Shown here piece by piece: positions 439 through 10,103 of a stretch of DNA of 11,692 bases. A program made the translations under genes and the position numbers. The notes beneath the pieces are model-generated. The model did no database searches. It worked only from the letters and a program-made list of their open reading frames with translations, and was not told the DNA's origin. Source of the DNA: a virus (Monodnaviria > Loebvirae > Hofneiviricota > Faserviricetes > Tubulavirales > Inoviridae); IMG/VR virus record IMGVR_UViG_2563366980_000001. One strand, written 5' to 3'. Within the stretch, counting starts at the first letter, position 1. Each line of letters begins with the position of its first letter.

Positions 439-1309
439 AATGGTAAGGATGGCAGAATCTGGCGGGAATCGTTGACACTGGCCGTCAACTGGCTACTATC
501 GACAGTGATTCAAAATCATCCGTTTCTCCAAACGAATCAGAATCAAATGTCTGTCAGCAGTAAGTGAACGGCCTGACCTCACCAATCAGGCCTGTTCATC
601 CAGTTAGTTGGTAAATCTGTACCTGATACACGAGAATCAAACACCACTTCTTCAGTGCCATCACCATGATGCCGGATAATCTGGTAACCGGATTGCGGGT
701 TCTGGCTCTCAGCTTCATAAGCAGCCCGGAATGCTGGATCTTTGAGAAGCATCACTTTCAGCTCCTGATGTGTCATGAATTTTTCCATGATAAGCCCCGA
801 TGAATGCTGCCGCGCCGAATCAGCCATAACGCTGAAAATGGAAACTGTACGGCTTGGCCAACCCCGGACAGCAACAAAACAAGTTTTGTCACTGACCGGC
901 GTTATCTTTCAAAACAGACAGTTAACGATTTTTTGTCTGGTGTTTATGCGTGAAATTTCGTACGTACGAAATTCACCACCAATAAACAAACGGACGATGA
1001 CTGACCGGAAAAGCAATGCCGTCAGCATCATGACCACGCATTACCTGATTGAGAAGCCTTCTGACTTCACGGCGCTCAGGCCTGGTCATCATCATATTGC
1101 GATACCAGGACGGCGATTTATCAAACCATCTGGCACAACTGGCAAAATGTGAACCTACACGACGATAAGACTTAAGGCGGCCACCGGGAAGTCGGTCACG
1201 CGCCTTATTTTTTACAGACATAATAAATCCTCTAAGTAACTGAATACCTAGAAGATGTCGTACTGTTCATACCCCATAAAAGTTAACGCCATAATAAAAA
1301 TCCATACAA

Positions 1310-2554
1310 TCAGTTCAGGTTGTCCCGGAACAGTTCACCGCTCCTCGCGGCGCTGCGGGGCGTCGCCCTGCTCCGGTCAACCTTTCTGACCTGAAGCATC
1401 ACCATAATATCAGTCTTGTTGCTTTCACTGGTACGGGAACCGAAGAAGCTCCAGCCGGAACTGGCCTTACTGTCTTTCTGTTCAGCAAGGCCACCAAGTA
1501 AAATAATATCACCATCTGCAAGGCTGACTTCGGTTGTTACATCACGCTTGATAAGGGTTGGCGAGTTATTGACGCCGGTTTCAGTGGTCACAAAGTTGGA
1601 AAGCTGCTGCTGAATCTTGAGATCCATTGTCCGACTTTTGATTGATGGCGTTACGTTAAACAAAACACCGCTGGAACGATATTCAACGGATTGCGTGGTC
1701 GTATTGTTATTCACCGTAACACTGCCCAGTACTGGCACATCAGAGCCGACTGAAAAAGACGCTGAGGCATTATTTTTTACCCGCAGTCGTGGCGCACTGA
1801 CAACAGTAAAACGACTGTCGGTTTTAAGCAGATTGAAAATGGCATCAATGGAGCCGGTTCGAATATTGATAAAATTATCCAGTCCGGCAGCACCAACTGA
1901 AATATTGAATTTATCAGACAGAATTTTAGCCGCTAAAAGAATGCCGGAGCCGTCAGACTGCGAGGTCTGAACCTCAAAAACATAACCAGAAACAACCACT
2001 TCATCACTCATCGTATCCAGCGAAGTGACCAGTGTTTTCAGGATGGCGATATCCTCTTTCGTACCATAATAAACCAGAATATCACCGGTTCGATTGATGT
2101 AGTTGCTTGCCCCTGATGAACCTTTTAGCGAATCGTCAGAAATCACGGCTCCACTGTTATTGAAGGAGCCTGAAACGTAGCCGCCAAGAATATCAGACAG
2201 GTAGGCAACAGAACGGTACTGAGGCGTATAAGTCCATGTATAACGTGGCTTAACCGGCTCTTTCGGCGTATAGGGCGCGATAAAATCAACACCCTTTTTC
2301 GTCCATATTCGAATGTTCATATTGCCAAGATAACGGGTTACAAATTCCCGTTCATCAATATCAGGTGTTAACCTGAATGTAATCATTCGTTCATCATTAA
2401 CAAGCTGTGGATCTAGCATATACGGGACTTTAAGCACCTCACTATAAATAAGAGAAATAGCCTCCGGTAGCTTGACTTTATTTAATTCAAGCTCTGACCC
2501 TGCGAAAGCACATGAAGAAAATAGTAGCGTTAATGCGAGTAAAATCTTTTTCAT
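1310..2554 (-). CDS. pIV-like secretin (filamentous phage export channel), 414 aa
   Basis: N-terminal signal peptide MKKILLALTLLFSSCAFA. Size and position (last gene of the assembly module, directly after the pI-like gene with a TAATG stop/start overlap at 2554) match gene IV of Ff-type phages. SD-like GGGGAA lies upstream. C-terminal region is Gly/Ser/Val-rich as in secretin domains. Confidence 0.75.
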   Translation of the reverse strand: MKKILLALTLLFSSCAFAGSELELNKVKLPEAISLIYSEVLKVPYMLDPQLVNDERMITFRLTPDIDEREFVTRYLGNMNIRIWTKKGVDFIAPYTPKEPVKPRYTWTYTPQYRSVAYLSDILGGYVSGSFNNSGAVISDDSLKGSSGASNYINRTGDILVYYGTKEDIAILKTLVTSLDTMSDEVVVSGYVFEVQTSQSDGSGILLAAKILSDKFNISVGAAGLDNFINIRTGSIDAIFNLLKTDSRFTVVSAPRLRVKNNASASFSVGSDVPVLGSVTVNNNTTTQSVEYRSSGVLFNVTPSIKSRTMDLKIQQQLSNFVTTETGVNNSPTLIKRDVTTEVSLADGDIILLGGLAEQKDSKASSGWSFFGSRTSESNKTDIMVMLQVRKVDRSRATPRSAARSGELFRDNLN

Positions 2555-6181: not shown

Positions 6182-6499
6182 TCAGCCTTTTATTTCAGTA
6201 ATGCCGCCATCTGATGAAATGTTATAAGTTACTCCTTCCCTCCCCTCCATTGACCAGACGCGAACATATACAGGTATCTGGACTAACTTACCGATAAAAT
6301 TATTTGCCTGATTCATTACACCGGCATTAACAAGAGCCTGAGATACACGAATAATAATCTGGTCTTGCTTAGTGCCACCAAAACCATCAGGAATCTCTAA
6401 GCCAACACCAATTTCATTATAGTATCCCTGACCATTGACCTTATTACGCTGGCGAGCACCAAGCATTTTACCTTTTACAAAAAGACCATAATTAGACAT
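6182..6499 (-). CDS. pV-like ssDNA-binding protein (putative), 105 aa
   Basis: Immediately downstream of the replication gene with a strong SD (AAAGGAGAGTGATAT-ATG). Small Gly-rich basic protein at the position occupied by gene V or RstB in filamentous phages. Functional call is positional. Confidence 0.55.
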   Translation of the reverse strand: MSNYGLFVKGKMLGARQRNKVNGQGYYNEIGVGLEIPDGFGGTKQDQIIIRVSQALVNAGVMNQANNFIGKLVQIPVYVRVWSMEGREGVTYNISSDGGITEIKG

Positions 6500-7563: not shown

Positions 7564-7734
7564 AAGTAGTCACACCCATCAAAATATGTGTCAATAGTCA
7601 TTTGTGAGCAGATTGAATGGTCACAATGTAATATGCTCAGATCTGACAGTCAATACATTTGCAATGTTTAAATTGTCAGAAATGAGCATCAAATCTAACT
7701 ATTGAAAAACCACTGTTAAGATGGAGCCAAGTAG
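7564..7734. promoter_or_regulatory. Divergent promoter/operator region between replication gene and repressor gene
   Basis: 171-bp AT-rich intergenic region between divergent start codons. Contains the perfect palindrome TCAGATCTGA (7637-7646), TGTGA-N12-TCACA (7604-7625), direct repeats of GTCAATA (7590-7596, 7649-7655) and repeated TGAGCA/TGCTCA half-sites (7605-7610, 7633-7638, 7683-7688). GGAG SD at 7723-7726 precedes the repressor ATG. Confidence 0.55.
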
Positions 7735-9920: not shown

Positions 9921-9959
9921 TTGAGATTTTTGGTTCGCACAATGACGTTATGCTAAAGA

Positions 9960-9995
9960 GGCCGCTGCGGGATTCGATTTTCGCAGCGGCCTTTT
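9960..9995 (+). terminator. Rho-independent terminator ending the cargo operon
   Basis: GGCCGCTGCG-(12-nt loop)-CGCAGCGGCC, a 10-bp perfect GC-rich stem (9960-9969 / 9982-9991) followed by TTTT (9992-9995). Begins 40 nt after the stop of the 374-aa ORF. Confidence 0.8.
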
Positions 9996-10025
9996 CAACA
10001 TAACGAGTCGTACATTATGCGCACC
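9993..10025 (-). other. dif-like hybrid attachment site (right prophage junction)
   Basis: Minus strand reads GGTGCGCATAA-TGTACGACTCG-TTATGTTGAAA. The XerC arm is 11/11 identical to dif, the spacer is 11 bp instead of 6, and the XerD-like arm matches TTATGTTAAAT at 9/11. Same orientation as the canonical dif at 411-438. About 78 bp from the hipA stop. Confidence 0.7.
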
Positions 10026-10103
10026 AACATAAACCAAGGGAGAATCCAGTCGTTGGCGGTTCATGATTGTTCTGCTCATTAACAACGACCAAAACCCCAT
10101 ATC

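Follow-up and report, generated by a model that had tools for sequence, protein, structure and literature searches.

The 871 nucleotides (nt) at positions 439-1309 of the inovirus record IMGVR_UViG_2563366980_000001, whose full 11,692-nt stretch is referred to here as the window, lie between the phage secretin gene (gene IV) and the chromosomal recombination site dif. They probably constitute the dif-proximal, 3′-terminal accessory module of a prophage of the CUS-1/YpfPhi type, in which small genes are combined with a leader-gated gene, orfA, and a set of conserved hairpins. Two genes (orfA and orfB) and a leader micro-open reading frame (micro-ORF) are intact and under purifying selection here, and together they account for 504 of the 871 nt (58%). 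The segment is mostly coding and already annotated, and it is the known, uncharacterised accessory end of CUS-1/YpfPhi. A preliminary description of this DNA, made from the letters alone, had reported no convincing ORF in the segment and had suggested either a gene-free intergenic region of the Ff type, carrying the origins and the packaging signal, or a degraded gene. Neither holds for the segment as a whole, and an origin or packaging role is a possibility for approximately 200 nt of conserved hairpins within it. Three elements had been missed: the leader micro-ORF (1248-1292), the hairpin that covers the Shine-Dalgarno (SD) sequence of orfA (1227-1256), and a hairpin downstream of orfA (859-904).

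Read along the sense strand, which is the minus strand of the window, the module runs from the gene IV stop codon through the leader (1292-1248), an RNA hairpin (1259-1217), orfA (1221-973), hairpins at 988-941, 939-915 and 904-859, orfB (788-579) and a tail (578-439) to the XerC side of dif. orfA would presumably be co-transcribed with gene IV, with the RNA hairpin keeping its translation start closed. A ribosome translating the leader would end at a UAG codon within the 5′ arm of the hairpin and melt the helix, which would free the orfA SD sequence and couple orfA synthesis to translation of the leader.

orfA and its leader

orfA (973-1221, minus strand; RefSeq WP_001399975.1) encodes a protein of 82 amino acids (aa) rich in arginine and tryptophan, which the preliminary description had dismissed as implausible. 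The conservation of its frame argues otherwise. A good SD sequence (AGAGGA) stands 6 nt ahead of the ATG, and the 82-codon frame is open in 27 of 27 distinct homologous sequences. Sense frames 2 and 3 carry stops in all 27, and the antisense frames, including that of a plus-strand ORF at 775-1152, carry stops in 24-27 of them. The median ratio of nonsynonymous to synonymous substitution rates (dN/dS) is 0.14, and in the 27 sequences the variable columns number 48, 46 and 77 at the first, second and third codon positions.

Full-length 82-aa homologues with 59-98% identity are found in Salmonella, Pantoea, Brenneria, Morganella, Xenorhabdus, Pectobacterium and Zobellella, and the copy in Yersinia pestis (NCTC5923) is 100% identical, with gene order and distance from dif unchanged. 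Among loci, orfA is 59-100% identical, whereas the accompanying gene IV products (pIV) are approximately 25-50% identical or not detectable: Xenorhabdus phages combine 70% identity in orfA with 46-50% in pIV, and phages whose pIV is 25% identical have an orfA that is 80-84% identical. In the inoviruses, orfA is conserved well above the level of the core genes, and every relative examined has it.

A profile search of 1.8 billion representative sequences with orfA returned 149 clusters at E<=1e-3, and the family shares a C-terminal core of approximately 50 residues, (S/T)PSWW..(M)TRPxRR...L...G.D.D..FP...KP..YYW. Members with genomic context lie on tailed-phage contigs near holin, endolysin, terminase, HNH and nucleotide-metabolism genes, and the family is a broad, uncharacterised group of small phage proteins that extends into tailed phages. 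Searches of orfA, orfB and 31 orfA relatives against Pfam, NCBIfam, PADLOC and Protein Data Bank (PDB) profiles yielded nothing meaningful; in Pfam, neither orfA nor orfB nor any of the 31 family members had a match at E<=1, and matches of orfA to PHROG were marginal only. The AlphaFold2 model of OrfA contains two helices, at residues 38-46 and 48-61, of moderate confidence. The basic and aromatic composition of the protein and these predicted helices weakly suggest that OrfA is most likely a small nucleic-acid-binding factor acting in regulation or assembly.

The 100 nt on the 5′ side of orfA are strikingly conserved between genera. They hold the leader micro-ORF of 14 codons (1248-1292, minus strand; MALTFMGYEQYDIF followed by a stop), whose ATG comes only 17 nt after the gene IV stop codon. 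The leader was found in 43 of 43 loci examined, from Enterobacterales to Aeromonadales, mostly with 13-14 codons and with 11 and 24 in two of them. Its final eight codons are G-Y-E-Q-x-D-I-F, and variation among them is nearly all at synonymous third positions (GGA/GGG, TAT/TAC, GAA/GAG, CAA/CAG, GAC/GAT and ATC/ATT). This synonymous variation is concentrated in five of the seven conserved codons; the Q codon also varies at its first and second positions, and the F codon is invariant.

The UAG stop codon of the leader sits in the 5′ arm of the hairpin that buries the orfA SD sequence (1217-1259, minus strand), and the distance from this stop to the orfA ATG is 24-29 nt across the 43 loci. The core stem (1256-1227) consists of 12 base pairs (bp) with the SD sequence as its 3′ arm, and a 4-bp outer helix, in which GACA of the leader pairs with UGUC of the orfA start, covers the AUG. 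The hairpin folds at -15.4 kcal/mol as RNA (z score -4.4), compared with -3.1 kcal/mol as DNA, where it is weak because the stem uses G.U pairs. In the minimum-free-energy folds of 21 of 21 distinct leader sequences (-10.5 to -22.9 kcal/mol) the SD sequence is paired, and in a 19-sequence alignment 94.7% of cells are paired, compared with 40-58% in slid controls. A short conserved ORF ends within an occluding helix, and that helix is maintained over both the SD sequence and the AUG, an arrangement that looks like translational coupling as the simplest reading. Conservation of the GYEQxDIF end at the amino-acid level further suggests that the peptide itself matters, for example through ribosome pausing at the stop codon. 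The leader and occluding hairpin ahead of orfA, the breadth of the orfA family, and the modularity of leader, orfA and hairpin appear to be the parts that are new here.

Within orfA itself is an element that had been described as a terminator-like hairpin of the plus strand (1177-1213). Its 14-nt arms are indeed 79% complementary, but they form a stem of only 6 bp with a 21-nt loop and receive no terminator call; the element is antisense to orfA and coincides with conserved codons of its N-terminus.

A more elaborate scheme, which we regard as improbable in its entirety, would make leader, hairpin and orfA a horizontally exchanged control cassette. The GYEQxDIF peptide would stall or sense at the stop codon and thereby gate OrfA, and OrfA would bind the 859-904 hairpin, the phage attachment site attP or packaging hairpins on viral single-stranded DNA (ssDNA) or mRNA, setting a switch between carriage and virion production or licensing complementary-strand synthesis or packaging. 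If true, OrfA would become the first protein to be characterised from a large family of small Arg/Trp-rich phage proteins.

Hairpins, orfB and the placement of replication signals

The hairpin between orfA and orfB (859-904, minus strand; labelled I1) has 20-bp arms and is the sole non-coding element common to Escherichia coli, Yersinia, Salmonella-type, Pantoea and Brenneria loci, with flanks that have diverged. In the alignment of these copies, 92.5% of cells are paired, compared with 38-55% in slid controls, and compensatory changes are present. Two pairs show double changes (G-C to U-A, and C-G to G-C, the latter closing a G/G mismatch of the window copy). In addition, A-T replaces a T/T mismatch, and Watson-Crick pairs replace G.U wobbles. 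The sense strand, which is the packaged one, folds at -14.2 kcal/mol (z -4.6), compared with -10.3 kcal/mol for the antisense strand. On these comparisons, the hairpin is the segment's best candidate cis signal, on ssDNA or RNA. Analogy with Xenorhabdus phages (below) favours a minus-strand origin, ori(-), as its possible function, and an RNA-level role is equally open. A promoter mimic within the hairpin was ruled out because the spacing is wrong.

The near-perfect palindrome centred on TACGTA that the preliminary description had noted at 950-976 is present and folds better than shuffled sequences. Its core (954-973) is perfect (10+10), a 1-nt bulge extends it to 950-976, and with outer arms at 941-952 and 977-988 it forms a hairpin (941-988, minus strand; -10.8 kcal/mol as ssDNA, z -4.4) covering the last codons and the stop of orfA. 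CUS-1/Ypf copies mostly have a central mismatch (tacgCacg), and the centre of the B. alni copy is compensated (gtgcgcac). The palindrome is clade-specific and is missing in L030/L047, L032, L004 and L005 (homologous loci are numbered here with the prefix L), where a different small hairpin (ttttagccgctaaaa) or nothing is found. The morphogenesis proteins of the sibling phage L030/L047 are 98-100% identical to those of the window (pIV 100%), and packaging by that machinery therefore does not need the palindrome, which is probably the 3′ stem-loop of the orfA message.

Of the other structures in the preliminary description, the GC hairpin GGCCTGA-N9-TCAGGCC (570-592) was confirmed. It is the inner part of a GC-rich hairpin (565-598, minus strand) that overlaps the orfB stop codon and folds at -11.2 kcal/mol as DNA (z -5.2) and -20 kcal/mol as RNA (z -4.6). 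Neither this hairpin nor the 950-976 palindrome was called by the terminator scan, and neither has a U-tract after its stem, the sense-strand letters there being ACUUACUG (570-592) and GCAUAAAC (950-976); for lack of the U-tract, the 565-598 hairpin is not a canonical intrinsic terminator. The inverted repeat CAGACA/TGTCTG (915-920 and 934-939, on either strand) is present at 915-939, with TTTT following on the sense strand, but its loop is 13 nt, not 14, and it is no better than chance (z -0.38; 60 of 200 shuffles fold equally well). It is limited to the CUS-1/Ypf clade, with a degenerate copy in B. alni that leaves one arm unpaired, and is probably insignificant, or a weak terminator at most.

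orfB (579-788, minus strand) encodes 69 aa. The longest ORF in this frame, 579-827, matches phrog_6642 (E 1.1e-53), with its residues 14-82 aligned to positions 1-69 of the 69 in the profile; because the match begins at codon 14, the conserved start is the ATG at 788, compared with 776 in the annotation of the Prokaryotic Genome Annotation Pipeline (PGAP). This ORF had been thought unconvincing and, from its KDPAFRAAYEAE stretch, a possible remnant of a gene for a small XRE-type regulator. It is instead an intact member of phrog_6642 under purifying selection (ratio of nonsynonymous to synonymous polymorphism, pN/pS, 0.15-0.3) that has no helix-turn-helix (HTH) or XRE match in Pfam. Homologues occur in Yersinia, Raoultella, Brenneria, Pectobacterium and Xenorhabdus, and the Y. 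pestis copy is 97% identical. The preliminary description had asked whether ORFs of the segment have homologues; orfA, with its family, and orfB, with phrog_6642, both do. In two loci (L046 and L026), orfB carries an in-frame deletion of 93 nt. In the CUS-1-like prophages of E. coli L047 (ETEC-2264) and L048 (ERP001), an unrelated 81-aa gene on the opposite strand (locus positions 803-1057; WP_000366203.1 / WP_032156720.1) stands in its place, and orfB is absent from L032, from Pantoea and from phages resembling UPPhi, a group of dif-integrating enterobacterial inoviruses whose genes II and V are like those of YpfPhi (PMC7307601). As judged from these loci, orfB is variable, exchangeable cargo.

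Beyond orfB, a conserved, non-coding tail (439-578, minus strand) leads to dif and forms, together with 579-605, a Y-shaped ssDNA/RNA fold (439-605; -28.2 kcal/mol, z -2.7), the variants of which are too similar for covariation testing. The tail is 97% identical in a mosaic UPPhi-like phage with unrelated morphogenesis genes and is retained, whatever the cargo, in the E. coli, Salmonella and Yersinia-type variants that reach dif. The Brenneria and Pantoea relatives lack this tail. Either the 859-904 hairpin or the tail could act in cis. On the plus strand of the tail, a strong sigma-70-like site (472-499; TTGACA-16-TACTAT) runs antisense to the phage genes and could be an antisense promoter or a promoter mimic for primer RNA on the viral strand. 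Between 300 and 1500, six promoter-like sites were detected where 1.7 are expected.

The most serious alternative to an accessory module with a gated gene is that the hairpins of the segment (859-904, 941-988 and the tail fold 439-605) are ssDNA cis signals for minus-strand initiation, packaging or both, interleaved with accessory genes as in an Ff/IKe intergenic region split by insertions. We consider this less probable than an accessory module, although it retains appreciable plausibility. The segment shares with the Ff/IKe intergenic region its position after gene IV and several stable hairpins, and the slot does hold IKe-type signals in relatives, where an IKe-like packaging signal (PS) and ori(-) flank the orfA cassette. 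UPPhi-like hybrids have an IKe-like PS between gene IV and the micro-ORF, and two Xenorhabdus phages (L012, 6285-6388; L016, 6285-6419) have an IKe-type ori(-) with 71-74% identity to IKe 6332-6460, beginning 36 nt 3′ of the orfA stop. IKe-type plus-strand origins, ori(+), are found past attP in L018 and 630 nt upstream of orfA in Zobellella L017. In the window, by contrast, nothing similar to the IKe morphogenetic signal, ori(-) or ori(+) (an inverted repeat around CTTTAAT plus ACTCTTGTT) was found anywhere by blastn at word size 7, Smith-Waterman alignment or motif scans, and no nick site or ori(+) motif of the IKe/Ff kind was found there; identical searches succeeded in L012, L016, L017, L018 and L032-L035. 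The comparison with Ff that the preliminary description drew holds for the slot in relatives but not for the window's own sequence. The Ff/IKe region is also non-coding, unlike the largely coding segment here with its short gap between gene IV and leader, and the path from the segment to the replication gene is interrupted, unlike in Ff/IKe, by a dif/attP site and three reverse-oriented genes.

Further points stand on both sides. The compensatory changes in the 859-904 hairpin and its greater stability on the packaged strand would suit a signal on ssDNA, and the 472-499 site points as a primer RNA on the viral strand would run, but the hairpins could work equally well as RNA. The loss of the 941-988 palindrome from L030/L047, with their nearly identical morphogenesis proteins, and of the tail from Brenneria and Pantoea argue against this alternative. 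In Xanthomonas integrative inoviruses, the origin and PS lie inside gene II (bioRxiv 10.1101/2023.12.30.573655), and position after gene IV is therefore no safe guide.

A mosaic relative narrows the placement of these signals. E. coli SCPM-O-B-12142 (NZ_CP144928.1, 4155-22233; L051) carries a tandem pair of a mosaic inovirus of UPPhi architecture (PMC7307601) that has three blocks in common with the window: 10027-6174 at 94.5% identity, comprising the attP hairpin, three reverse-oriented genes, Rep and G5P; 1293-799 at 80%; and 633-424 at 97%. Its morphogenesis module (G7P-2, coat, attachment, DUF5455, Zot and secretin) is unrelated and IKe/UPPhi-like, and the mosaic boundary at window position 1293 falls one base 5′ of the leader ATG. 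Where the secretin gene of L051 ends, ahead of the leader, there is a morphogenetic signal of the IKe kind, in keeping with the IKe-like morphogenesis genes of this phage; packaging signal and morphogenesis module therefore move together. L051 yielded neither an ori(-) nor an ori(+) resembling those of IKe, so the origins must lie in the blocks that it has in common with the window. Two of these, 1293-799 and 633-424, reach into the segment, which speaks for cis signals there.

By the same comparison, the packaging signal of the window is probably a GC-rich imperfect hairpin in the last approximately 25 codons of gene IV (1318-1385, minus strand), just outside 439-1309, which is positionally better than anything in the segment. 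In stability (-19.5 to -23.7 kcal/mol; z -3.5 to -4.05) and in size it resembles the annotated morphogenetic signal of IKe (-18.2 kcal/mol, z -4.3), which likewise overlaps the end of gene IV. A comparable hairpin, with the core CCCCGCAGCG..GCGAGGAG, occurs in B. alni and in Xenorhabdus L007 and L010, and none was seen in the stretch folded for the other Xenorhabdus loci examined.

The plus-strand origin would lie outside 439-1309. In the intergenic region between Rep and the repressor (7564-7734), named in the preliminary description as another potential origin site, the motif TGAGCA(T) recurs and two 27-nt arms (7633-7659/7663-7689) make up an inverted repeat. These repeats are likely operators of the HTH repressor; the region is a possible site of the plus-strand origin, and no IKe-like nick motif was found in it. 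In Xenorhabdus L007, L010, L011 and L013/L018, a different conserved, non-coding and apparently structured block (atgcccgttagggcatgtaaggcggc ... ccgccgatacaaaggggggactgaatcagggaatacg ...) lies approximately 400-600 nt past orfA; these phages are without the 859-904 hairpin, and the block recurs close to the end of the prophage.

Other readings of the genes and the leader

orfA and orfB could also be host-directed "moron" cargo that serves fitness or virulence, like ctxAB, without a role in the phage life cycle, although we find this doubtful. Their position is that of the ctxAB slot, the literature treats the ORFs as accessory (PMC4266046, PMC7307601), and orfB is deleted, replaced or absent among close relatives. 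An intact orfA is moreover found beside dif in loci without detectable phage genes (Pantoea L004, Brenneria L005 and Zobellella L017). For orfA, however, conservation far above that of the core genes and presence in every relative examined are unlike a typical moron, and tailed phages, too, have members of the family, with early, lysis and terminase genes as neighbours. OrfA has no signal peptide, toxin-like features or noteworthy PADLOC defence match, and tight leader-gated translation would fit a dosage-sensitive regulator.

Searches around orfA in the Pantoea, Brenneria and Zobellella loci found no second attachment site that would bound a mini-element. In Zobellella aerophila (L017, 5328-6310), inovirus structural genes were not detected; the locus contains the leader MIYWYETLDIF with its stop and an intact orfA, with dif 31 nt beyond the orfA stop and no left attachment site found, and it also has an IKe-like ori(+) (87% identity over 46 nt) and a 92-aa ORF rich in Cys. 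The locus is what is left of a prophage or, alternatively, a small satellite-like element.

It is unlikely, in our view, that the 1227-1256 hairpin and its U-rich tail serve mainly as a terminator or attenuator ending the gene IV operon, with the leader controlling read-through. The 12-pair stem, with TTATTATG after it, is flagged by the terminator scan; relatives commonly have a U-rich tract at this place (UAUUUUUAUG, GGUUUUUUAUG); and the position of the leader stop would also fit ribosome-mediated anti-termination. The stem, however, is poor in G-C pairs (only 3) and includes 2-3 G.U pairs, and the U-tract is interrupted and doubles as a normal A/U-rich spacer between SD sequence and AUG. 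In every sequence the SD sequence forms the 3′ arm, and the outer helix covers the AUG and first codons, a pattern that marks translational occlusion. Both mechanisms could act at once.

Least probable, to the point where we give it little credence, is that the micro-ORF is untranslated and conserved as a structural or binding element of RNA or DNA among degraded ORF remnants: it is too short for any gene caller, its I-F-stop codons also form a hairpin arm and its E-Q codons can pair with orfA codons 2-3, but the synonymous variation includes the G-Y-E and D codons outside the core stem, an in-frame ATG always lies 11-14 codons upstream (24 in one locus), many loci have a good SD sequence, and orfA and orfB are intact with low dN/dS, so that "degraded" does not apply.

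Several observations nevertheless weigh against an accessory module in which a translated leader gates orfA. We infer translation of the 14-codon leader from its conservation, and its own SD sequence in the window is weak (GGA at about -12); other loci have better ones (AGGGGA or GGAG). Double changes in the SD-sequestering hairpin occur at only 2 of 12 pairs, a modest covariation that is explained by the additional constraint of the I-F-stop codons and the SD sequence on its arms. The hairpin is flagged by the terminator scan, with a U-rich stretch after its stem, and could act on transcription instead of, or besides, translation. Distant orfA family members in tailed phages lack the leader. 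The AlphaFold2 models of OrfA are mediocre, with a mean predicted local distance difference test (pLDDT) score of 53 from an 18-sequence alignment and 66 from a 58-sequence alignment, and Foldseek against PDB and BFVD, along with profile searches, gave zero matches. For the hairpins at 859-904 and at the 3′ end of gene IV, the roles put forward are candidate ones, proposed from position, stability and conservation.

The prophage and its known relatives

The whole window is 100% identical to sequence of E. coli UTI89/NU14, and the element is a CUS-1/YpfPhi-type inovirus prophage sited at dif of E. coli UTI89. RefSeq annotation and Pfam matches (Phage_CRI Rep, G5P, coat B, DUF2523, Zot and Secretin) confirm an inovirus and place all core genes, from Rep to the secretin, on the minus strand. 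In order, these are Rep (Phage_CRI, 7563-6511), G5P (6499-6182), the coat proteins, pIII (5595-3883), pVI (DUF2523, 3870-3583), Zot/pI (3579-2554) and the secretin pIV of gene IV (2554-1310; Pfam Secretin, E 1.3e-24). RefSeq also lists both orfA and orfB, as hypothetical proteins. In blastn and tblastn searches of a phage collection, the segment and orfB had no match, and orfA had one weak match, in a Salmonella record.

The prophage boundary is a regenerated chromosomal dif (411-438, on either strand) that matches E. coli dif exactly (28/28), where no chance matches are expected in the window; on the plus strand it comprises the XerD arm (411-421), the central region (422-427) and the XerC arm (428-438). 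A 17-nt direct repeat, tacattatgcgcaccaa, occurs at 424-440 and at 10011-10027. At the opposite end, which adjoins hipA, another XerC arm is present (10015-10025), and the XerD side there is degenerate. This end contains a CTX-type attP region (9925-10030, minus strand) in which a GC hairpin separates two dif-like sites in inverted orientation, one at 9998-10025 and one at 9932-9958 whose central region is 5 nt long; together they fold as a forked ssDNA hairpin (-30.5 kcal/mol, z -7.1). This arrangement is consistent with the description of YpfPhi in PMC4266046. An intact dif at one end and a forked inverted dif-like pair at the other make this a CTX-type integrative mobile element exploiting Xer (IMEX). 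An Rfam scan of the whole window gave two sub-threshold chance matches only, both on the attP hairpin. At the prophage edge, two weak promoter-like sites on the minus strand (427-455) face out over dif into the chromosomal flank. Tandem prophage copies were seen in relatives.

YpfPhi of Y. pestis and CUS-1 of E. coli O18:K1:H7 are the same element as the one described here, with both ORFs after the secretin gene and beside the regenerated dif/attR. YPO2280a and YPO2281 of YpfPhi adjoin attR at the ctxAB position, with functions that could not be predicted (PMC4266046); from gene order, orfA would be YPO2280a and orfB YPO2281. The published descriptions consulted here make no mention of the leader micro-ORF, of the SD-sequestering hairpin, of conservation of the 859-904 hairpin, or of how widely the orfA family extends. 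The UPPhi phages carry novel genes, h1 and h2, of unassigned function in a region that is intergenic in IKe and I2-2 (PMC7307601). L051, with its UPPhi architecture, carries the leader-orfA cassette at about 80% nucleotide identity, and it is a possibility that h1 or h2 is identical with orfA or orfB. CTXPhi offers a similar plan of accessory genes between the morphogenesis genes and a regenerated dif, a forked attP hairpin and tandem copies, but the cargo here is unrelated to cholera toxin, and orfA is found in many phages and is not lineage-specific.

Coupling of a leader ORF to a downstream gene through an SD-occluding hairpin is known from tap-repA of the IncFII plasmid R1, repY-repZ of IncI-alpha/IncB plasmids, and mok-hok. 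As in these systems, a short upstream ORF stops in or near an SD-sequestering helix, and the downstream product is likely dosage-sensitive. An antisense RNA partner, by contrast, is not evident here, and a leader whose C-terminal peptide is conserved across orders would be unusual for pure coupling.

Wherever a dif/attP site was detected, it lies downstream of orfA, at 31 nt past the stop in Zobellella, 125 nt in Pantoea and at most approximately 1.3 kb in Xenorhabdus; no such site was seen in the stretch scanned for about half of the loci. Among the small proteins of integrative inoviruses, the DUF3653 proteins XafT (TLCPhi) and PSB15 (PhiLf) have Xer recombination or the packaging-signal hairpin as their target. 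By analogy, a similar role is conceivable for OrfA, whose gene comes after the morphogenesis genes and, wherever the site was detected, before dif/attP, with conserved hairpins next in line. Unlike XafT and PSB15, however, OrfA has no match to DUF3653 (WAGFxF motif) or HTH, differs in length and motifs, and belongs to a family that occurs in tailed phages. A dif/Xer-specific function was set aside, as the distant tailed-phage members have no Xer context and DUF3653 is absent.

CUS-1 and YpfPhi have been linked to fitness in neonatal-meningitis and uropathogenic E. coli and in pandemic Y. pestis, and the review in PMC4266046 closes by naming the ORFs at the prophage terminus as the main unknowns. 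The narrower placement of origin and packaging signals is useful for building phagemids or marked derivatives of integrative inoviruses. For the terminal ORFs, there are now testable handles: orfA as the most conserved gene of this phage group, a gate made of leader peptide and hairpin, and a module that travels with a conserved hairpin.

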